Below, piece by piece: positions 25,239-56,643 of a stretch of DNA of 64,000 bases. Both the position numbers and the translations under genes were made by a program. Origin of the DNA: Nitrosopumilaceae archaeon (GTDB lineage Archaea > Thermoproteota > Nitrososphaeria > Nitrososphaerales > Nitrosopumilaceae); assembly GCA_965209085.1 (NCBI GenBank), contig OZ242376.1, positions 640,001 through 704,000 on the forward strand, written 5' to 3'. How positions within the stretch are numbered: position 1 is the stretch's first letter; every line of letters begins with the position of its first letter. Under the pieces are notes generated by a model. It was not told the origin of the DNA. It saw only the letters and a list, made by a program, of their open reading frames with translations, and did not search any database.

Positions 25239-26535
25239 AGGCCTTATGCATAATCAATCACTGAGACATACGGTTCCGACTATGACGCTGTCATGATCAA
25301 AGTACACATGGCCTAAAACCTTCAAGCAGACAACAAAATAAATCAAAATATCATATGCATGACAAAAAGCAGAATATTATGCGTGACTGTATGCACAAAG
25401 ATGTGCTACTTGATTTGAGCGCAAACTTTTTCCAACGGTTCGATATACTTGCGATCCTTTAACATGATGTGCAGATTGGTCAGTCCTGTAACCACTTGGA
25501 TTTCTGTATAAAACGCATCCATTGTATCATCATATACGGCACTCATTCTGCGGAACCATTTGAGCCGGTTTATGGCATGCTCTACTTTTATGCGCTTACG
25601 ACTGATTCTCTTGCTGTATTCACGTTCTGTCTCTGTCAATCCCTTACCCTTTGGTTTTTTGTACGGCTGCTTTGAGATAATGCCCCGATAGTCTTTTTCC
25701 ACGGACAGATATCCCTTGTCAGTATATAGCATAATTTGGCGCTCTTTTTTTGTATCAGAGTTTTTCATGCCATTGGTCCATTTGCCAAAATTTGGCGGAT
25801 TACGCCGCAGTACCTCCATGTCATGTACTGAGCCATCTTCAGGTCCGCCAATGTCAAGTACCAACCCGTCTTTGTTTGAGGTTATCTGTACGTTGTAGAC
25901 GTGCCTCTTACGCTTTCCAGAGTATACTACCTCTTGGTTTTCCTGCGGTCTTTGAACCTGTACAAACGTGGCATCAAGATATAGCTCGCCGCCGCCTCTG
26001 CCGGGTACGAATTTTTTAAACAACTCGCTTGTACGTATTGTCCGTATTGCAGCACCAATATTCTTAGCCGTTGGAAGAATATTCATCAACAATTCATCAG
26101 AAAAGGTCAGATATCTGCTGATGGTGCTCTGATCAACGCCTGCAATGGCCGCAAGCAATTCCTGTTTAGGATTGTTGCGTTTGCGGCACAGTGTGACAAA
26201 CAAAATTTGAGATGCAGTGAGAATACAGGTGTTTCCAGGATCGTCGACATCATCTGAAAAGCGGGGGACCTTGGGCGAATATTCGATAACTTTTTCAAAC
26301 CGTTCCTGAATCCATTCAAACTCTTCACGGTTCATTCCAGTCGTCCCGTACAAATAATTGTCATCGTCAATTATGTGGTTCAAATATTCGTAGGCAGATT
26401 GTTGCTTTTCGACCTCATTATCATGTATCGTTTTTTTGTAGTGTTGAATTTCTGCTTCAAGCTTGGAGATCATCTCTGTTTGCTGGGCGATTATACGCTT
26501 GTCTGGGGCACACATGCTGTACGAATGTGATACTA
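25239..26535 (-). mobile_element. IS5-family element A (transposase 25406-26515), left end lost at an IS110 junction
   Basis: DATF..QRP, YSGK, G.VHD, DKGY, R..VEH motifs; TIR AGGCCTTATGCATAAT; nearly identical to 55289-56643. Confidence 0.88.
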
Positions 26536-27867
26536 ACCATATGTGCCCAAGAAATCAAGGAATTCAGATGGTTGCTTAAATGATAAATCCGTATCAGTCA
26601 ACAAACGCAAGCCCAAAAACAAAGCTCAAAATGCAAACAAAAACACTAGGGTGTTTAAGAGCAAGTCCATGTTTGTTGGAATTGACTCCCATAAAGAATT
26701 TCTCCAGATAGCAGCAATTGACGGCAAAGGCAAACTGATCTTAAACACGCGTGTTGAAAACAGACACGCGGACATTAGAAAGTTTTTCCAAATAAGCATA
26801 CCCGAGGGTTCAAAGATGGTAATGGAGTCATCATCTGTCTGGTACGGACTGTTCCGATACATGACCGACAGACTGGATCTTGATGTGATTCTCTCAAACC
26901 CATATCAGACAAAGGCCATTGCCGCATCCACTAAAAAAACAGACAAAGTTGATGCGCAAATTTTGGCAAATTTGCTGCGAGGAGGATATATCAACGAGTG
27001 CTATGTTCCAGGTAAAAAGATTGTAGAGCAAAGACAACTGGTCCGATACAGGCACAAACTTGTACAGGCGAGAACAAATATGAAAAATTCCATACATGGA
27101 ATACTGCTCCAAAAAGGAATTAAAATTCCAGGACGTACGTTTTCGTACAAATACATTGCAAGCCTTTAAGCCATAAACGACTATCGAATAGACGGTTTTC
27201 TTGCATCCATTGGCCTTTATGACAATCAGATACAAAAAGCCAATGTACTGATCTACAAGTGCACGTACAAGCCGGTATGCCGATATACTCAAAACTGTCC
27301 CAGGAATTGCAGATTTTACGGCATTAACGATTGCATCTGAGATTGATAATGTTGAGAGATTCTCTGATCCTGAAAAGCTAAAATCATACGTAGGACTTGC
27401 ACCATCGGTCCGCAATTCTGCCAATCTCGTACATCATGGACACATAACAAAAAGAGGAAGCAGAATGCTCAGGTGGGTTCTAGTTGAGGCAATACGCTCG
27501 CACGTACTACATGCACCAAAAAGTGACATTTCAATATTTTACAAGCGGCTTGCAAGAAAGAGAGGAAACTCCAAGGCTGCAGTTGCAGCAGCTGGAAAAA
27601 TGCTAAAGGTGATTTACTGGTTACTAAAGGAGAATCGGGATTTTGAACAAAATTACAGTTAGTTGCACGGCCGCGGCGCAGTATATGGAGATAGTGCTCC
27701 GAGATTCTAACTGCGGTAAGCTCTAACAAGTGGATGAAGATGGTTGTGGGGATAATGCCCCGAATGGATATATGTCTCTCATTCTTTAATTGGAAAAATA
27801 GCCCCTAGTGGATACTGTACAAAAATATGGAAAAACGCAAGGAATACTTAAAAAAGAGGCACATGGA
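26536..27867 (+). mobile_element. IS110/IS1111-type element, variant 2 (transposase broken by a stop and a frameshift)
   Basis: GIDSHK, MES, KTDKVDA (DEDD), GLAPSVRNS. Ends ACCATATGTG...CACATGGA flanked by TA; about 200-bp 3' non-coding region. Confidence 0.88.
27663..27867 (+). ncRNA. Putative bridge/seek RNA of IS110 variant 2
   Basis: CCGCG-[GCGCAGTATAT]-GGAG..CTCC-[GAGATTCTAA]-CTGCGG module, then an ATGGTT / GGGG..CCCC / ATGGATA module. Exact RNA ends unknown. Confidence 0.65.
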
Positions 27868-27869
27868 TA

Positions 27870-28987
27870 TACTGCGGATCAAAAGTAACTGCAATCTACA
27901 GCTTTTCTCATAACAAAATCCATTATTGATACTTTGAATCGTACAGTTCTAAAATATTCTGAAATTGTATATTTCATATTCTCAAATGTTTCATAATATT
28001 CAGTGACGGCCAACGCACGTTTGGCCTGATACCAACATTCTTCAACGGCACTCAGAAACGGTGAACTTGTAGGGAAAAACAAAAGCTTTACCTCATCTTT
28101 ATTCTCAGATATATATTTTTTAATAATTTTGGATTTTCTGTGTTGTGCAGTTCTATCCGTAATTATGCAAATTTTTCCAAATTTTTGATGAGCCATTTTT
28201 AAAAACTTGAGAAATGATTTTGCATCAAACAAATCATAGTTTGCAAACATCTGCCTGCTATCCGATAAGAGTACTCCAAAGACAACAATTTTTTTGTGAG
28301 AACCTGTGGATTTTACGTAACAATTTTTGCTTATTTCAATCCAGAGTTTCTTGCCGGATAATGAATCGTATTTTATTATACATTCATCCTGAACGCCTAC
28401 TGCAAATCCACGCTCTTCAAGTAGGCATATTTGACGCCTAGTGTTTTGCGACCAGTTGTAGCAGACTGATGCCGGCGCTGCATTGACATGAATTCTTTTT
28501 GGAGCCTTGCTGACAAATGAGAATTTGTGGAGTCTTTTTCTGATGTTTGATATGTGATATTTTACTCCGGTTTTGCGTTTAATGTTGTGCATTACCTGTT
28601 TTGGATCAACTGAACCGTTCTCTCGTCTTGTCATGTCAATAATTTTTTTAAATCGTATATTTGATAATAATAAAGGCCTGCCCGATTTGGGCAGGGTTTT
28701 AAGACCGTCTAATCCAAGCTCGTCATATCGTTGCATGCATTCTTTGCCCCAGTTGTAGCTTTTCATCAGTAATTCCGAAGCTTTAGCTATATGGGGATGT
28801 TTTGGTATTTGACCATGCTTACAAGATATATTTTTGATATCTCTTTTCTGTCTTTGACATGCCTGCTTGCATTATACAGTTCCTGATGTTCTTTGTTCAT
28901 GATTGATTCATACCCGAGGTGATCCAAATATCTTGCGGTTACATTGTGCCTAGAGTCATAAATTGCAGTTACTTTTGCGTGTCAGTA
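27870..28987 (-). mobile_element. IS630-family element 2 (ORF 27879-28766; 5' part frameshifted)
   Basis: QDE, DRTAQH, SPFLSAVEECW; TIRs TACTG....CAAAAGTAACTGCAAT with TA flanks. Confidence 0.8.
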
Positions 28988-30225: not shown

Positions 30226-30402
30226 CTCCGTTGCATAACTGCGGTAAGCTTTAACATGTGGATGAAGATGGTTGTGGGATTAAATCCCGAATGGATAGAT
30301 GTCTTTTTACTTTTTGACTGGAAACAGACACATAGCGAAAGCCATACCGCATGACACAAAAAAGCAAGAAACCTTTAAAAAGTATTCACATGGGTGAACT
30401 CT
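30226..30402 (+). mobile_element. Solo right-end fragment of IS110 variant 1 plus a MITE TIR remnant
   Basis: Matches 47563-47737; ends CACATGGG-TG-AACTCT-AAT. Confidence 0.85.
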
Positions 30403-35618: not shown

Positions 35619-37119
35619 AGAGTTTATCCATGCGAATACTTTAAAGATTTCTTGATTTTCGGTGTCATGCGATATGGCTTTCGCTATGTGTCTGTTTCTA
35701 GTCAAAAGATACAAGACATCTATCCATTCGGGATTTAATCCCACAACCATCTTCATCTACATGTTAAAGATTACCGCAGTTATGCCGCCGAGGTAACATC
35801 CCCAAAGTCTAACCCGCGGTTTGTTGCTTTAACTATGATGTATTTCAAATTCACTCCTATCCTTTAGCATACGAAATATGACATCAAGCATCTTGGCCGC
35901 TGCTGCAACTTTGGCCTTGGATGATCCTCTCTTTTTTGCAAGACGCCGGTAAAATTCAGAAATGTTCCTCTCTGATGAAAATTGGACATGAGTGGTATAC
36001 TGCCGCTCATAAATAAATGCAATTTTTGAAGCATGTTAACATTAGGACTAGGCGTGAATAATTGCAGTTACTTTTGAGTGGCAGTATAATAGCTTCCACC
36101 AGTGCTCACCGCATCATCCTACTTCCTCTTTTTGTTATATGTCCGTGATGGACCACATCTCTGAATTGTGAACAGATGGGGCAAGACCAGCATATGATGT
36201 GAGTTGTTTTGGTTCAGAAAACCTCTCAATTCCATCAATTTCTGCTGCCAGTATCAATGAAATAAAATCCACTATGCCAGGTATTGTCTTGAGCAACATT
36301 GCATCCTTGTTTGAACAGGATGCGTTGTGCACCTTTATGTTTGAATCTGCAATTTTTGTATTAACGAATCCAATAGAATCCAAATATCCGTTTATACGAT
36401 AGTCCTTTAGAAAACGCAGTTTTTATTGTATGCAAGCGTAAATGTTACTCCAAAGATCTTTATCCTTCCCTGTAACAAAATTCCATATATTTTGTTTTTT
36501 TAGAGTTGTTCTTGTCTTGACAAGACTGTTGCGATATTGTACAAGTTGCTGTTGTTCCATTATGTCCTTGTTTGAGACATGACAGAGGGATATGTATCTG
36601 CAGCGTAATATGTCTGCAAGTGTTACAGCATCCCTCTTGTCAGTCTTTTTCTTGGATGCGGCGATGATTTTTGTAGCCCAATGATTTGACAATACGACAT
36701 CATAACCCATCTTGTCTGTCATGCATCGATTTAGTCTGTATCATACGGATGAAGATTCCATGACGATTTTTGCATTTTCAGGTACGCTTGATCAGATGAA
36801 TAATCTGATGGACTTGTTTTCATTTTCAATCCTCTCATTAAAAATCACTTTAGCTTTTTTATCCATCATTGCAATTTGGAGAAATTTCTTGTGAACGTCC
36901 ATTCCCACAAACATATCCTTCCCAGAATATGTGGTAATCTGTTTGTTTACATTTGGATCTTTTTTAGATGATTTACGTCTCGGTAATACGGATCGTTTGA
37001 CATTCTGACAACCATCGATGGTCTTAGAATCTTTCTTCACATATGGTTATGCATAATGAGCCAAATTCACAATTTTTACGAATAAAAATGACCGATTTGA
37101 ACGATTATGTATACGATCT
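35619..37119 (-). mobile_element. MITE interrupted in its TIR by a degenerate IS110 variant 1 (35627-37047)
   Basis: AGAGTT-TA-[IS110]-TA-TGCATAAT...GATCT; the transposase has several stops. Confidence 0.88.
35996..36089. mobile_element. About 90-bp IS630-derived MITE nested in the IS110 copy
   Basis: Absent from other IS110 copies. Ends TATACTGCC.CTCA / TGAGTGGCAGTATA resemble the TIRs of IS630 element 2; TA duplication. Confidence 0.8.
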
Positions 37120-42081: not shown

Positions 42082-43413
42082 TCCATGTGAATATTTTTTA
42101 AACGTTTCTTGCTTTTTTGTGTCATGCGGTATGGCTTTCGCTATGTGTCTGGTTCCAACCAAAAGATGAAAAGACATTTACCCATTCGGGATTTAATACC
42201 ACAACCATCTTTATCCACATGTTAAAGCTTACCGCAGTTATACAGCCGGGGTAACATCCCCAAAGTCTAACCCGCGGTTTGTTGCTTTAACTATGATGTA
42301 TTTCAAATTCACTCCTATCCTTTAGCATACAAAATATGACATCAAGCATGTTGGCCGCTGCTGCAACTTTGGCCTTGGATGATCCTCTCTTTTTTGCAAG
42401 ACGTCGGTAAAATTCAGAAATGTTACTCTCTGATGCAAATCAGACATGGGTGGTAACAGCTTCCACCAGTGCCCACCGTATCATCCTGCTGCCTCTTTTT
42501 GTTATATGTCCATGATGTACCACATCTGCTGAATTGCGAACCGATGGGGCAAGACTCGCATATGATTTGAGTTGTTTTGGTTCAGAAAACCTCTCATTTT
42601 CATCAATCTCTGCTGCCAGTACCAATGAAATAAAATCACCTATGCCAGGTATTGTCTTGAGCAACATTGCATCCTTGTTTGAACAGGATGCGTTGTGTAC
42701 TTTTATGTTTGAGTCTGCAATTTTTGTATTAACGAATCCAATAGAATCCAAATATCCGTTTATACGGCAATCCTTTAGAGAACGCAGTTTTCTATTGTAT
42801 GCAAGCGTAAATGTTGCTCCAAAGATCTTTATCACTCCCTGTAACAAAATTCCATGTATTTTGTTTTTTAGAGTTGTCCTTGTCTTGATAAGACTCACGA
42901 TATCGTACAAGTTGTCGTTGTTCCACTATGTCCTTGTTTGAGACATGACAGAGGGATATGCATCCACACCGTAATAGGTCTGCAAGTGTTACAGCATCCC
43001 TCTTGTCGGTCTTTTTCTTGGATGCGGCGATGATTTTTGTCGCCCATGGATTTGACAATACGACATCATAACCCATTTTATCTGTCATGTATCGATATAA
43101 TCCGTACCATACGGACGAAGATTCCATTACGATTTTTGCATTTTCAGGTACACTTGATCTGAAGAATCGGCTGATGGACTTGTTTTCATTTTCAATCCTC
43201 TCATTAAAAATCACTTTGGCTTTTTCATCCATCATTGCAATTTGGAGAAATTTCTTGTGAACGTCCATTCCAACAAACATATCCTTCCCAGAATATGTGG
43301 CAATCTGTTTGTTTACATTTGGATCTTTTTTAGATGATTTACGTTTCGGTGATACGGATCGTTTGACATTCTTACAACCATCTGTGGTCTTAGAAGCTCC
43401 CTTCACATATGGT
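42082..43413 (-). mobile_element. IS110 variant 1, pseudogenised
   Basis: Same ends and TA flanks as other copies. One flank is TIR-like (GGACCT). Shares its frameshift and premature TGA with 46400-47730. Confidence 0.9.
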
Positions 43414-46342: not shown

Positions 46343-47737
46343 TCGTTCAAATCGGTCATTTTTATTCGTAAAAATTGTGAATTTGGTTCATTATGCATAA
46401 CCATATGTGAATAGAGCTTCTAAGACCACAGATGGTTGTAAGAATGTCAAACGATCCGTATCACCGAAACGTAAATCATCTAAAAAAGATCCAAATGTAA
46501 ACAAACAGATTGCCACATATTCTGGGAAGGATATGTTTGTTGGAATGGACGTTCACAAGAAATTTCTCCAAATTGCAATGATGGATGAAAAAGCCAAAGT
46601 GATTTTTAATGAGAGGATTGAAAATGAAAACAAGTCCATCAGCCGATTCTTCAGATCAAGTGTACCTGAAAATGCAAAAATCGTAATGGAATCTTCGTCC
46701 GTATGGTACGGATTATATCGATACATGACAGATAAAATGGGTTATGATGTCGTATTGTCAAATCCATGGGCGACAAAAATCATCGCCGCATCCAAGAAAA
46801 AGACCGACAAGAGGGATGCTGTAACACTTGCAGACCTATTACGGTGTGGATGCATATCCCTCTGTCATGTCTCAAACAAGGACATAGTGGAACAACGACA
46901 ACTTGTACGATATCGTGAGTCTTATCAAGACAAGGACAACTCTAAAAAACAAAATACATGGAATTTTGTTACAGGGAGTGATAAAGATCTTTGGAGCAAC
47001 ATTTACGCTTGCATACAATAGAAAACTGCGTTCTCTAAAGGATTGCCGTATAAACGGATATTTGGATTCTATTGGATTCGTTAATACAAAAATTGCAGAC
47101 TCAAACATAAAAGTACACAACGCATCCTGTTCAAACAAGGATGCAATGTTGCTCAAGACAATACCTGGCATAGGTGATTTTATTTCATTGGTACTGGCAG
47201 CAGAGATTGATGAAAATGAGAGGTTTTCTGAACCAAAACAACTCAAATCATATGCGAGTCTTGCCCCATCGGTTCGCAATTCAGCAGATGTGGTACATCA
47301 TGGACATATAACAAAAAGAGGCAGCAGGATGATACGGTGGGCACTGGTGGAAGCTGTTACCACCCATGTCTGATTTGCATCAGAGAGTAACATTTCTGAA
47401 TTTTACCGACGTCTTGCAAAAAAGAGAGGATCATCCAAGGCCAAAGTTGCAGCAGCGGCCAAGATGCTGGATATCATATTTCGTATGCTAAAGGATAGGA
47501 GTGAATTTGAAATACATCATCGTTAAAGCAACAAACCGCGAGTTAGAGTTTGGGGATGTTACCCCGTTGCATAACTGCGGTAAGCTTTAACATGTGGATA
47601 AAGATGGTTGTGGGATTAAATCCCGAATGGATAGATGTCTTTTTACCTTTTGACTGGAAACAAACACATAGCGAAAGCCATACCGCATGACACAAAAAAG
47701 CAAGAAACCTTTAAAAAGTATTCACATGGATAACTCT
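46328..47737 (+). mobile_element. MITE interrupted in its TIR by IS110 variant 1 (46400-47730, pseudogenised)
   Basis: AGACCGTATGCATAAT...ATTATGCA-TA-[IS110]-TA-ACTCT. Confidence 0.9.
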
Positions 47738-52874: not shown

Positions 52875-53558
52875 AGATGCCTTGCGTAATAAAGAAATTC
52901 GATCATGCAGTCCAAACTTTTAGATCACATCGATCTATTTTCATGCATATTTACGGTGTTTTGTGTTCTCAGAAACGACAATGCGCAAAAAACCGCATGC
53001 ATTCAAGGCGTTTACCGGTCTTACGGTCGAAGAATTTGATTCCTTGATTCCTGGCATACGTAAAAAATATCTTGAATGCCAGCTGGATGTTGCAGATGCA
53101 GCAGAAAGACAACGAAGTCCAGGAGGAGGCAGGAAACATCACTTGTCACTGCCAGATCGGTTAATAATGACGCTTGTTTATTTACGAGAATACCAGTCGT
53201 ATGAAAAAATAGGATACATGTTTGACTTGGATCAAAGTAATGTACAACGAAACATAGGCATGATTCTAAAGATATTGGCAGATATTCTTCCAACTCCACA
53301 TAAACTACACAAACAAGTTTTAGAAATAAAATCTTCCAAAGATCTTGAAAAGAATTTTCCAGACAATTATTGCGTTACAGATGCTACAGAACAACGGGTA
53401 TGGCGTCCAAGTGACAAGGAAGAACAAAAGAAAAACTATTCTGGCAAGCACAAAACACATACTAGAAAAACAACAGAAGTCATAAACGGAAACGGAATGA
53501 TCTTGTATAGCTCAATGTCATATCCTGGCAGTGTACACGATTATGCCATTAGACCGTA

Positions 53559-53762
53559 TCCATGTGAATACTTTTTAAAGGTTTCTTGCTTTTTTGTGTC
53601 ATGCGGTATGGCTTTCGCTATGTGTCTGGTTCCAACCAAAAGATAAAAGACATCTATCCATTCGGGATTTAATCCCACAACCATCTTCATCTACATGTTA
53701 AAGCTTACCGCAGTTATGCAGCCGGGGTAACATCCCCAAAGTCTAACCCGCGGTTTGTTGCT
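53559..53762 (-). ncRNA. Putative bridge/seek RNA of IS110 variant 1
   Basis: Target-like loop at 53707-53754 (TTAGACTTT / TGCATAA); donor-like loop at about 53646-53688 (ATGGTT / ATGGATA). Confidence 0.7.
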
Positions 53763-54884
53763 TTAACGATGATGTATTTCAAATTCACTCCTATCCTTTA
53801 GCATACGAAATATGATATCCAGCATCTTGGCCGCTGCTGCAACTTTGGCCTTGGATGATCCTCTCTTTTTTGCAAGACGCCGGTAAAATTCAGAAATGTT
53901 ACTCTCTGATGCAAATCGGACATGTGTGGTAACAGCTTCCACCAATGCCCACCGCATCATCCTGCTGCCTCTTTTTGTTATATGTCCGTGATGGACCACA
54001 TCTGCTGAATTACGAACCGATGGGGCAAGACCCGCATATGATTTGAGTTGTTTTGGTTCAGAAAATCTCTCAACTCCATCAATCTCTGCTGCCAGTATCA
54101 ATGAAATAAAATCACCTATGCCAGGTATTGTCTTGAGCAACATTGCATCCTTGTTTGAACAGGATGCGTTGTGTACCTTTATGTTTGAGTCTGCAATTTT
54201 TGTATTAACGAATCCAATAGAATCCAAATATCCGTTTATACGGTAATCCTTTAGAGAACGCAGTTTTCTATTGTATGTAAGCGTAAATGTTGCTCCAAAG
54301 ATCTTTATCCCTCCCTGTAATAAAATTCCATGTATTTTGTTTTTTAGAGTTGTTCTTGTCTTGACAAGACTGTCGCGATATCGTACAAGTTGCCGTTGTT
54401 CCATTATATCCTTGTTTGAGACATGACAGAGGGATATGTATCCGCATCGTAACAGATCTGCAAGTGTTACAGCATCCCTCTTGTCGGTCTTTTTCTTGGA
54501 TGCGGCGATGATTTTTGTCGCCCATGGATTTGACAATACGACATTATAACCCATTTTATCTGTCATGTATCGATATAGACCGTACCATACGGATGAAGAT
54601 TCCATTACGATTTTTGCATTTTCAGGTACGCTTGATCTGAAGAATCGACTGATGGACTTGTTTTCATTTTCAATCCTCTCATTAAAAATCACTTTGGCTT
54701 TTTTATCCATCATTGCAACTTGAAGAAATTTCTTGTGAACGTCCATTCCAACAAACATATTCTTCCCAGAATATGTGGTAATCTGTTTGTTTGCATTTGG
54801 ATCTTTTTTAGATGATTTACGTTTCGGTGATACGGATCGTTTGACATTCTTACAACCATCTGTGGTCTTAGAAGCTCTCTTCAC
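53763..54884 (-). CDS. IS110-family DEDD transposase/recombinase, intact
   Basis: 373 aa; GMDVHK, MES, KTDKRDA, IPGIG, YAGLAPSVRNSA, AAAKML. Confidence 0.95.
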   Translation of the reverse strand: MKRASKTTDGCKNVKRSVSPKRKSSKKDPNANKQITTYSGKNMFVGMDVHKKFLQVAMMDKKAKVIFNERIENENKSISRFFRSSVPENAKIVMESSSVWYGLYRYMTDKMGYNVVLSNPWATKIIAASKKKTDKRDAVTLADLLRCGYISLCHVSNKDIMEQRQLVRYRDSLVKTRTTLKNKIHGILLQGGIKIFGATFTLTYNRKLRSLKDYRINGYLDSIGFVNTKIADSNIKVHNASCSNKDAMLLKTIPGIGDFISLILAAEIDGVERFSEPKQLKSYAGLAPSVRNSADVVHHGHITKRGSRMMRWALVEAVTTHVRFASESNISEFYRRLAKKRGSSKAKVAAAAKMLDIIFRMLKDRSEFEIHHR

Positions 54885-55288
54885 ATATGGTTATGCATAA
54901 TCGTTCAAATCGGTCATTTTTATTCGTAAAAATTGTGAATTTGACCCATTATGCATAAAGTCTATTGTGAAAGAGAATCACCCACTGCAGTGTGAAAACA
55001 AAATTACGCAGGATCTGCTGAATTCTGTCTCAAATCTCTATGATAGCGCATATCAGGGAATACATGACGCGTTTCCACAAGCAAATTCGATTATACCCTG
55101 TAAAAAATATAAAAACAAAAAGAGAACCCGTGAACAAATATTTCACAATAAATTACTCTCAAGCGTACGTGTGCGGATAGAACATGTTTACAGCAGAATT
55201 AAGAAATTCAACATACGCCGAGATGTATTCCGATCCCGATTTGATAAATATGATGGAATCGTGCAGGTTGTAAACGGATTAATAAATT

Positions 55289-56643
55289 AGACCTTATGCA
55301 TAATTAACCAAAAAATCAATTTTGACAAATCGAAAGATCTATGATCTAGTATCACATTCGTACAGCATGTGTGCCCCAGACAAGCGTATAATCGCCCAGC
55401 AAACAGAGATGATCTCCAAGCTTGAAGCAGAAATTCAACACTACAAAAAAACGATACATGATAATGAGGTCGAAAAGCAACAATCTGCCTACGAATATTT
55501 GAACCACATAATTGATGATGACAATTATTTGTACGGGACGACTGGAATGAACCGTGAAGAGTTTGAATGGATTCAGGAACGGTTTGAAAAAGTTATCGAA
55601 TATTCGCCCAAGGTCCCCCGCTTTTCAGATTATGTCGACGATCCTGGAAACACCTGTATTCTCACTGCATCTCAAATTTTGTTTGTCACACTGTGCCGCA
55701 AACGCAACAATCCTAAACAGGAATTGCTTGCGGCCATTGCAGGCGTTGATCAGAGCACCATTAGCAGATATCTGACCTTTTCTGATGAATTGTTGATGAA
55801 TATTCTTCCAACGGCTAAGAATATTGGTGCTGCAATACGGACAATACGTACAAGCGAGTTGTTTAAAAAATTCGTACCCGGTAGAGGCGGCGGCGAGCTG
55901 TATCTTGATGCCACGTTTGTACAGGTTCAAAGACCGCAGGAAAACCAAGAGGTAGTATACTCTGGAAAGCGTAAGAGGCACGTCTACAACGTACAGATAA
56001 CCTCAAACAAAGACGGGTTGGTACTTGACATTGGCGGACCTGAAGATGGCTCAGTACATGACATGGAGGTACTGCGGCGTAATCCGCCAAATTTTGGCAA
56101 ATGGACCGATGGCATGAAAAACTCTGATACAAAAAAAGAGCGCCAAATTATGCTATATACTGACAAGGGATATCTGTCCGTGGAAAAAGACTATCGGGGC
56201 ATTATCTCAAAGCAGCCGTACAAAAAACCAAAGGGTAAGGGATTGACAGAGACGGAACGTGAATACAGCAAGAGAATCAGTCGTAAGCGCATAAAAGTAG
56301 AGCATGCCATAAACCGGCTCAAATGGTTCCGCAGAATGAGTGCCGTATATGATGATACAATGGATGCGTTTTATACAGAAATCCAAGTGGTTACAGGACT
56401 GACCAATCTGCACATCATGTTAAAGGATCGCAAGTATATCGAACCGTTGGAAAAAGTTTGCGCTCAAATCAAGTAGCACATCTTTGTGCATACAGTCACG
56501 CATAATATTCTGCTTTTTGTCATGCATATGATATTTTGATTTATTTTGTTGTCTGCTTGAAGGTTTTAGGCCATGTGTACTTTGATCATGACAGCGTCAT
56601 AGTCGGAACCGTATGTCTCAGTGATTGATTATGCATAAGGCCT
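55289..56643 (+). mobile_element. IS5-family element A, intact (transposase 55322-56476)
   Basis: TIRs AGACCTTATGCATAAT / ATTATGCATAAGGCCT; ATT duplication; DDE motifs. Confidence 0.92.

Follow-up and report, generated by a model that had tools for sequence, protein, structure and literature searches.

RNA guidance in the IS110 and IS1111 groups of insertion sequences, natural re-programming between related elements, and targeting of the inverted repeats of other transposons have all been published for bacteria (PMC11208160, PMC11187229), and the IS1111 family is described as abundant in bacteria and archaea (PMC11187229, Discussion). The seekRNA of IS1111-type elements is reported to carry a top-strand match 5′ of a bottom-strand match, with overlap between them at the insertion point (PMC11187229), and IS1111 members are described as having the bridge RNA in the right end (PMC11208160). 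The sub-terminal inverted repeats of IS1111 elements are 7–17 bp in length.

The DNA analysed here is a stretch of 64,000 nt (the window) from an ammonia-oxidising archaeon; an archaeal SSU model score of 1472 bits and an archaeal amoA in the genome agree with the archaeal version of such an element that was proposed in a first-pass annotation. The element at 53559–54893 very probably belongs to the IS1111 type within the IS110 family and looks active, with a guide RNA of ~135 nt encoded just 3′ of its recombinase gene; its anatomy, its site specificity, the covariation of the structure and the covariation of guides with flanks are direct observations. A genuine IS1111-type bridge/seekRNA system in an archaeon thus appears well supported by comparison of sequences. 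As this mechanism has already been described in bacteria, the element is a new archaeal example and not a new principle, and the novelty may be smaller still, as Supplementary Table 5 of PMC11208160 and the supplementary trees of PMC11187229 could list archaeal elements with predicted RNAs.

Like the IS1111-type seekRNA elements ISEc11, ISPa11, ISKpn4 and ISPst6, as described by Siddiquee et al. 2024 (PMC11187229), the archaeal element has a DEDD recombinase, a long non-coding region downstream of the gene and sub-terminal inverted repeats, and its predicted RNA has the top-strand guide 5′ of the bottom-strand guide, overlapping at the insertion point. Re-programming of close relatives on conserved stems, described there for ISEc11 and ISXne4, has its counterpart in variants 1 and 2 of the archaeon. 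The differences from the elements described in that source are the archaeal host, the TA core and the Ser-Ala motif, a second module that is a plain internal loop mirroring both ends, and a right end with an A/T box in place of a split bacterial promoter; the archaeal element is also known here from sequence alone.

As in the accounts of IS621 (Durrant et al. 2024, PMC11208160; Hiraizumi et al. 2024, PMC11208158), the right-target guide—here the target-loop 5′ strand—complements the core and also the last donor base, the final base of the element, in many orthologues, like the handshake guide. Unlike IS621, whose RNA is encoded in the left end (PMC11208160), the archaeal element encodes its RNA in the right end; the order of guide strands within each loop is reversed, and the core is TA, that of IS621 being CT (PMC11208160, PMC11208158).

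Anatomy of the nested insertion

Variant-1 elements were delimited by BLAST across the whole genome, where their ends are sharp and common to the copies, eight of them full and many partial. In the window, the element is inserted in a MITE, and the MITE in an IS5-like transposase gene:

52963–55290, plus strand: IS5-like transposase gene (HTH_Tnp_4, DDE_Tnp_4), interrupted by the MITE
53551–53558, plus strand: left tip of the 78-bp MITE split by the IS110-family element; the 3-bp target duplication of the MITE lies at 53548–53550 and 54964–54966
54894–54963, plus strand: the other 70 nt of the MITE, with an intact right inverted repeat
53559–54893, minus strand: variant-1 IS110-family element, 1335 bp with the TA core counted once; left end, on the 5′ side of the recombinase gene, at 54893, right end at 53559, second TA copy at 53557–53558
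53763–54884, minus strand: recombinase ORF, 373 aa, with its first start codon at left-end position 10 and the conserved catalytic domain from about residue 43

The MITE remainder has 31 copies in the genome that span at least 56 of its 70 nt. Position 53547 is joined to 54964 in contigs of three public runs, with three bases in common, and public DNA contigs from four runs over 53400–55000 contain joints spanning the MITE and the element, as well as loose ends that continue through unbroken copies of the repeat. The circle-junction joint is not among the contig joints of these four runs over 53400–55000, where contigs drop rare forms and so are uninformative on circles. A megablast comparison with a plasmid collection gave no match.

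From the stop codon (53763), 204 nt of non-coding DNA extend to the right end (53559); upstream of the gene there are 9 nt, or ~135 nt if translation begins at an internal ATG. An imperfect sub-terminal inverted repeat of ~10 bp is found just inside both ends and, by eye, is conserved in orthologues. Long terminal inverted repeats are absent, and a short TA core is common to both junctions instead of a conventional target duplication.

The predicted protein is an intact recombinase of the IS110 family, as the first-pass annotation had held. [quoted passage not shown] In phmmer searches, its C-terminal domain aligns with IS621 (8wt6) and ISCro4 (9t56) of the PDB, and its C-terminal serine with the motif serine of both; likeness to IS621 is detectable in this domain only (E 2.6e-6). 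The C-terminal motif ends Ser-Ala, and the family motif is given as Ser/Thr-Gly, Thr-Ala now and then (PMC11187229).

The landing site in the IS5-like/MITE repeat

The IS5-like element and the 78-bp MITE have a terminal inverted repeat in common, and variant-1 copies are inserted at a single TA position within it, in one orientation throughout. Nine of the 12 variant-1 left ends in the genome adjoin the same 8-nt repeat interior, two a copy of it with one mismatch, and one unrelated DNA; at all 17 right ends a recognisable repeat tip follows (by eye), beginning TA in 16 cases and TG in one, with two of the 17 rows representing a duplicated segment with one flank in common. Tabulated genome-wide, this repeat is therefore the flank at 11 of 12 left ends and at all 17 right ends. 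The TA core that had been proposed is present at both junctions (16/17 right ends and every left end), and empty sites carry one TA. The exact 11-nt core of the repeat has 38 genomic copies, nine occupied and 29 free, and these, with the copies of the MITE remainder, bear out the view of the MITE/IS5 repeat as a multi-copy landing site.

Three copies had been assigned in the first-pass annotation to one and the same TA in the MITE repeat, and this is confirmed for those at 35627, 46398–47730 and 53559. Of the three hexamers listed for these sites, the second is found at two of them (at one a base shorter) and the third at one; the first is at none of the three and is the sequence of the intact right MITE tip at 54958–54963. 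A repeat-like flank had also been claimed for the copy at 42082 and for a fragment, now placed at 30232–30394, and it is present on the right-end side only.

A published element that targets terminal inverted repeats is reportedly orientation-specific too, and inserts at one position inside the repeat of another transposon, as the archaeal element does. The targets differ, being in the archaeon an IS5-like element and its MITE, and an IS630-like element for variant 2.

Within the genome, guide sub-variant may be tied to flank variant. Sub-variant b has three of its four copies in register in the flank variant that it matches, with the fourth off by one base, and sub-variant a has six of ten copies in its own flank variant; with Fisher's p ~0.07, calculated by hand, the association is suggestive only.

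The predicted RNA and its two modules

Folding and covariance modelling of the 3′ region, a check proposed in the first-pass annotation, gave a conserved structure with compensatory changes. The predicted fold of the 204-nt region contains two internal-loop modules, and the target module has the following parts:

53638–53771, minus strand: predicted bridge/seekRNA core, 134 nt, beginning at the recombinase stop codon; covariance model score 120.6 bits
53760–53766 with 53698–53704, minus strand: basal helix of the target module (consensus fold)
53749–53753 with 53707–53713, minus strand: flanking stems of the target module (consensus fold)
53738–53748, minus strand: target loop 5′ strand, reverse-complementary to the second base of the core and the right flank that follows it (recombinase-sense strand)
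53724–53737, minus strand: apical hairpin of the target module (consensus fold)
53714–53723, minus strand: target loop 3′ strand, identical to the last left-flank bases, the TA core and one further base

For eight elements, RNAalifold predicts 24 pairs, of which 12 show compensatory change. In an alignment of 33 orthologues, 93.4% of cells are paired, compared with 35–47% when the partners are slid; both sides have changed in 19 of the 24 pairs, and the covariation score was reached by none of 500 shuffles. This alignment was fitted to the covariance model and was used for the counts because a MAFFT alignment misplaces some loop columns. The orthologues were taken from a search of genomes; a locus search of genome contigs had found three partial relatives only. 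Of 101 genomes from the same archaeal family, 17 have a match to the RNA model, and a scan of 53300–55200 with the 4227 models of Rfam 15 assigned no family, the best match (E = 0.51) lying over the MITE. ISPpu9 of Pseudomonas putida, as described in PMC12288879, is likewise an IS110-family element with a multi-copy genomic repeat as target and a small RNA gene downstream of its transposase gene; it differs in being bacterial, in targeting REP sequences and in having solo copies of the RNA gene, whereas the 20 matches to the archaeal RNA in the source genome all lie within element copies or fragments.

Among orthologues the donor-loop strands hardly vary, in contrast to hypervariable target-loop strands. 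For eight elements, with loops delimited by hand, the guides score 10.0 against their own flanks and 3.4 against those of others, and the observed sum is given by the identity permutation only (1/40,320). For 26 non-redundant 5′ strands compared with right flanks, the values are 5.9 (own) and 3.6 (other), which none of 100,000 permutations reached, with some other element's right flank outscoring the element's own in 11 of the 26; for 17 3′ strands compared with left flanks they are 2.7 and 0.44 (again 0/100,000). The core-adjacent base of the left flank matches the 3′ strand in 17/17, and the left-flank matches are short, at 1–5 nt, and weak in variant 2 and three other lineages. Mismatches to the guides are frequent at natural sites, the 53559–54893 copy having two on the right flank. 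The loop-to-flank matches claimed earlier hold in the register given for them, and the target-loop strands follow each element's own flanks.

The identity of the 3′ strand to the left flank and core would mean that this strand pairs with the bottom strand. Because variant 1 has a target whose left part is a palindrome, a single copy is compatible with reading of either DNA strand by the 3′ loop strand, and the point is settled only by orthologues with non-palindromic targets.

The second module has two loop strands that correspond to the ends of the element:

53677–53687, minus strand: donor loop 5′ strand, complementary to the first left-end bases past the core
53654–53663, minus strand: donor loop 3′ strand, identical to the last right-end bases plus the TA core

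Its geometry mirrors that of the target module—a strand of 10–11 nt, a hairpin and a 10-nt strand with the core at the same place. The earlier claim of a match to both element ends in the same register stands, and in orthologues the donor-loop strands change with the ends, which have three states on the right and three on the left, each matching.

In the mechanism that we propose, a structured two-module RNA of ~135 nt would be encoded directly 3′ of the DEDD recombinase gene. The 5′ strand of its target module would pair with the core and right flank on the top strand, and in the second module the 3′ strand would repeat the right end and core and the 5′ strand complement the start of the left end. 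The recombinase–RNA complex would then join the circle junction of the excised element with a target holding the same TA, with strand exchange at the TA common to both. The programmed target of variant 1 would be the IS5-like/MITE terminal inverted repeat, with dozens of landing sites per genome. For the 53559–54893 element we infer transcription, binding of the RNA by the protein, circle formation and catalysis.

The donor-guide role of the second module follows the model of IS621, since the short ISEc11 seekRNA may lack a donor module. The alternative that survives best, although we think it unlikely, is that the RNA serves target choice only and that the recombinase recognises the ends by their sub-terminal inverted repeats; the likeness of the second module to the ends would then have another cause, for example protein binding or a regulatory role, with no pairing to donor DNA. 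An 82-nt ISEc11 seekRNA with target matches only is reported to have sufficed for movement, and the authors of that report stress that end recognition in IS1111 is possibly different (PMC11187229). In about half of the orthologues (by eye) pairing of the donor-loop 5′ strand with the left terminus extends over only ~5 bases and leaves the core uncovered, and the identity of this strand over 7–10 nt to an internal segment of the left end, seen in orthologues, is unexplained by a simple donor-guide model. A target-only RNA does not, however, account for a second module whose two strands follow the right end and the left terminus through three states each, or for its copying of the target-module geometry, which is the design described for IS621 (PMC11208158). 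A guide with both target and donor modules is therefore preferred.

Far less probable is targeting by protein only, in which the recombinase or a host factor would read the inverted repeat, the 3′ structure would be a terminator or an mRNA-stability element, and the likeness of loops to flanks would be chance or a captured target. Taken singly, the 53559 copy fits this reading: its matches are of 7–9 nt only, its part-palindromic target eases matching, and the single-sequence fold of its 217-nt right end is unexceptional (z = −1.35; 19/200 shuffles fold equally well), so that the case for RNA rests on comparison between elements. Loop matches beyond chance come from variant 2 and the orthologues, and it is these that targeting by protein leaves unexplained: the differing loop strands of relatives match their differing flanks, and variant 2, with a recombinase ~57% identical to that of variant 1, sits at the tip of another element with a loop match at every position. 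Least probable of all is that the conserved pairing works in single-stranded DNA, as right-end hairpins during recombination: covariation by itself cannot separate RNA from same-strand DNA, but G-U, found at one pair in 32/33 sequences and at another in 29/33, is tolerated in RNA, is weaker in DNA and would be C-A on the other strand, so that a transcript of the recombinase strand fits and its complement does not, while the biochemistry published for the bacterial family uses RNA (PMC11208160, PMC11187229) and the structure starts at the stop codon, a position that would place it in the recombinase mRNA's 3′ UTR.

Variant 2 and its target lie elsewhere in the window:

26534–27867, plus strand: variant-2 element, ~65% DNA identity, with its RNA at 27654–27787; same stems, other target-loop strands
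27868–28766: IS630-like element adjoined by variant 2, consisting of its tip and a transposase gene (DDE_3, HTH_32; 27879–28766, minus strand)

The right junction of variant 2 agrees with the reverse complement of its 5′ strand at 10/10 positions, and variant 2 is, on its predicted guide, naturally re-programmed to the tip of the IS630-like element. A same-genus relative reads the same repeat as variant 1 at a TA six bases away. Variants 1a, 1b and 2 in one genome, with this relative, form a natural re-programming series and provide a comparative case, with controls, for RNA-guided IS110/IS1111 recombination in ammonia-oxidising archaea. The ends of two transposon families would here serve a third as safe, multi-copy landing sites, a relationship relevant to the build-up of insertion sequences in small archaeal genomes. 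The elements are compact (recombinase ~331–373 aa, predicted RNA ~135 nt), and their TA core and mesophilic archaeal source would widen the pool of bridge recombinases for study.

Two candidate control sequences inside the ends

Two further sequences lie within the element, one inside each end:

53572–53579, minus strand: A/T-only 8-mer, TATA-box-like, 14–21 nt inside the right end and facing outward
54852–54861, minus strand: left-end internal segment (left-end positions 33–42), identical to the donor-loop 5′ strand and an inverted repeat of the left terminus

The position of the A/T box is conserved in orthologues, with an A/T fraction of 0.96–1.0 at −20 to −15 over 26 right ends. It could be a complete archaeal TATA-type promoter, active after circularisation, from which a leaderless recombinase mRNA would begin at the start codon at left-end positions 8–12. 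The left-end segment could make a third RNA–DNA contact, or could act as a switch, autoregulatory or by fold-back, telling circle-derived from read-through transcripts. That the right-end promoter and the left-end segment together constitute two added control layers in archaeal elements is a tentative proposal, and we regard it as possible but somewhat doubtful. Both the box and the covariation of the left-end segment with the donor loop may be new relative to the literature on bacterial systems, and they offer leads on the control of expression and of donor recognition under archaeal-type promoters. An ATG inside the left-end segment was considered as the true start of the recombinase and rejected, because in variant 1 it lies in another reading frame and in one orthologue a stop comes after it. 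The identity of the segment to the donor-loop 5′ strand persists through at least six sequence states.

Element, host and insertion sites

The IS110-family elements considered here, and the recombinase gene, are placed in the window as follows.

53559-54893, minus strand: IS110-family element, variant 1, 1335 bp
53763-54884, minus strand: recombinase open reading frame, 373 aa, with DEDD_Tnp_IS110 and Transposase_20 domains
26534-27867, plus four other copies: variant 2, a related element

The recombinase scores 223.9 bits against the NCBIfam model 'IS110 family RNA-guided transposase' (cut-off 140), and its C-terminal domain can be aligned to the solved IS621 and ISCro4 recombinases, with a serine coinciding with that of their motif. 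The host genome is one contig (C1) of 1.69 Mb and 41% G+C; an archaeal SSU rRNA (1472 bits) and archaeal amoA identify it as that of an ammonia-oxidising archaeon. An intact IS110-family recombinase and an archaeal host, both assumed in the first-pass annotation, are thus confirmed.

A BLAST comparison of the element with the genome identified eight full-length variant-1 copies, many fragments, and the second variant at approximately 65% identity. Several variant-1 copies are decayed, with in-frame stops, and weaker DEDD transposase domain matches beyond the two variants lie at C1:1300010-1300426, 1530636-1530950, 954522-954704 and 723565-723696. The region 26000-57000 of the window is rich in mobile DNA—at least five IS110-family copies or fragments, IS5-like copies, MITEs and an IS630-like element—several of which are nested.

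The insertion is itself nested: a 78-bp MITE, with its 3-bp duplication, interrupts an IS5-like transposase gene (HTH_Tnp_4 and DDE_Tnp_4), and the IS110-family element in turn interrupts the MITE, 8 bp in from the left tip. The MITE and the full-length IS5-like element have a common inverted repeat. With the flanks of all copies read in the recombinase orientation, nine of 12 variant-1 left ends (5′ of the recombinase gene) adjoin the same 8-nt inner part of this repeat, two a copy with one mismatch, and one unrelated DNA. The repeat tip follows all 17 right ends (two of these rows are a single duplicated segment), beginning with TA in 16 and TG in one, and orientation relative to the repeat is constant in every copy. 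Flank reading therefore bears out the earlier placement of three variant-1 copies at one TA, the accompanying list of hexamers being the only slip, and the genome-wide tabulation puts 17/17 right ends and 11/12 left ends at the same inverted repeat. That repeat is, as had been suggested, a multi-copy landing site: there are 31 MITE copies spanning at least 56 of 70 nt, 23 of 35 IS5-like BLAST segments are at least 1300 nt long, and the 11-nt repeat core occurs 38 times, nine occupied and 29 free.

Structure of the predicted guide RNA

The 204 nt from the recombinase stop codon to the right end hold two modules. Alone, the variant-1 3′ region folds unexceptionally (z −1.35); comparison of relatives decides the question. 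Of 201 genomes sampled across the same order, 32 carry relatives of the recombinase, and eight elements from six genomes share a common plan immediately after the stop codon, in this order:

1, basal helix
2, stem of 5-6 bp
3, large internal loop, closed by a hairpin
4, conserved linker
5, second stem with internal loop and hairpin

RNAalifold recovers 24 pairs from these eight elements, 12 of them with compensatory change, and a covariance model was built on the same set. Searched against the host genome, the model gives 20 matches, every one within an element copy or fragment; in the same archaeal family, matches occur in 17 of 101 genomes and seven of 27 genera. Among 33 model-aligned orthologues, pairing is found in 93.4% of cells compared with 35–47% when partners are slid; the alignment, being fitted to the model, is biased toward structure, but the slid controls are equally biased and still far lower. 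Both sides have changed at 19 of the 24 pairs, and none of 500 shuffles reaches the covariation score. The two-module non-coding structure described in the first-pass annotation is upheld by this comparison, in both fold and covariance model. G-U occupies one pair in 32 of the 33 sequences and another in 29, which fits an RNA that would be read from the recombinase strand. More distant relatives in other families of the order (loci L021, L022 and L026) have a similar second module, and their first module does not align to the model; these 3′ regions may represent another architecture.

Target and donor loops

Both strands of the first (target) loop are hypervariable among the 33 orthologues, except that the 3′ strand keeps a fixed TA plus one base close to its 3′ end, and both strands of the second (donor) loop are nearly constant. 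The target-loop 3′ strand is a copy of the bases immediately left of the insertion point together with the TA core. In the 17 non-redundant elements whose left end is mapped, identity extends from the core over a mean of 2.7 nt of the element's own left flank and 0.44 nt of other flanks; the base adjoining the core matches in 17/17, and the observed sum is reached in 0/100,000 permutations. The variant-1 target has a palindromic left half, so that copy does not tell which strand is read; in orthologues with non-palindromic targets the 3′ loop strand is identical to the top strand, in the register originally proposed.

The target-loop 5′ strand complements the right junction, with a mean longest match of 5.9 nt to its own junction versus 3.6 nt to others (26 non-redundant guides; 0/100,000 permutations). 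Against a guide reading, 11 of the 26 score higher with some other element's flank, and several own matches are just 2–4 nt. With loops delimited by hand in eight elements, the combined score is 10.0 for own flanks versus 3.4, and the own-flank score is attained by the identity permutation alone (1/40,320). Two registers are observed. Variant 2 and several lineages have a 5′ strand complementary to the last base of the element, all of the core and seven bases of flank. The 5′ strand of variant 1 and three others begins at the second core base and reaches further into the flank. The first of these registers is the arrangement in IS621 structures after strand exchange (PMC11208158), in which the incoming donor core is paired with the right-target guide, and donor positions 6-7 with the handshake positions.

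The donor loop has the same geometry as the target loop: its 3′ strand copies the last right-end bases and the core, its 5′ strand is complementary to the first left-end bases, and each tracks its end through three states among orthologues. The match of the second module to both ends, noted earlier from one sequence, is thus maintained as the ends change.

Natural re-programming of the predicted guide is seen in variant 2, which resembles variant 1 in its stems and donor loop and differs in its target-loop strands. In every copy the right flank is the tip of a different repeated element, IS630-like since it encodes a DDE_3 and HTH_32 transposase. Three copies of that element stand unoccupied, and insertion is at the TA immediately outside its tip (loci concerned: 26534-28766 and genome positions 580714, 1091055 and 1361701); the reverse complement of the 5′ strand matches the junction at 10/10 positions, and the left flanks are variable and weakly matching. 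Variant 1 has two guide sub-variants one base apart. All four copies of the rarer, b, lie in the flank variant matching its base (three in register, one shifted by one base), and the ten copies of a are divided between the matching flank variant (six) and the other (four), so that a tie between sub-variant and flank is suggestive only. At the right junction of L075 (genome G208, same genus), a related element with a different guide also reads this IS5-like repeat, its crossover being placed at a TA six bases deeper inside.

The first-pass observation is confirmed, and these comparisons of sequence support its interpretation as a putative IS110/IS1111 guide RNA targeting another transposon's inverted repeat, with a mechanism that would follow published bacterial systems. 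The element shares with IS1111-type seekRNA elements, as reported in PMC11187229, a long downstream non-coding region, sub-terminal inverted repeats, and a top-strand match 5′ of the bottom-strand match, the two overlapping at the insertion point. The same paper describes a pair of close relatives in which targeting was naturally re-directed and the stems were conserved, and it calls the family abundant in both bacteria and archaea. According to Durrant et al. (PMC11208160), IS1111 members carry their bridge RNA in the right end, and a preprint (10.1101/2024.06.21.599552) counts 662 archaeal IS110 recombinases. Literature searches and main-text passages turned up neither an archaeal guide RNA of this family nor these targets.

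Features of the element ends

Two further features lie near the ends of the window element.

54852-54861, minus strand: left-end internal segment (left-end positions 33-42), identical to the donor-loop 5′ strand
53572-53579, facing outward: A/T box near the right end

The left-end segment occurs at the matching place in L006, L010, L036, L050, L053, L054, L059 and L065. Its longest word shared with its own donor strand averages 7.2 nt, and with others 5.5 nt (17 non-redundant orthologues; 0/100,000 permutations); two or three hairpin-side bases vary by lineage, yet agree between the segment and the donor-loop 5′ strand. The segment is also a conserved inverted repeat of the left terminus (seven pairs, three with compensatory change), a pairing that excludes the variable bases, which still change together with the donor-loop strand. 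A further RNA–DNA contact, on the bottom strand, and a fold-back silencing read-through transcripts are both candidate roles.

Nearly all of 26 orthologues have an A/T-only box of 7–8 nt at −21 to −14 from the right end (A/T fraction 0.96–1.0 at −20 to −15). On circularisation its centre would lie approximately 25–28 nt upstream of the start codon (left-end positions 8-12), the usual spacing between an archaeal TATA box and the transcription start. The box may thus be a TATA box that reads through the circle junction and on into the recombinase gene, and from its spacing it could give the circle a promoter for a leaderless recombinase mRNA that would also supply the 3′ RNA. It would then correspond, in archaea, to the junction promoter that PMC11187229 discusses for bacteria.

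At four loci of genome G187 (L039-L042), right ends run into a left end that lacks its first bases, and L044 (genome G092) has a duplicated right end; these look like tandem or aberrant junction products.
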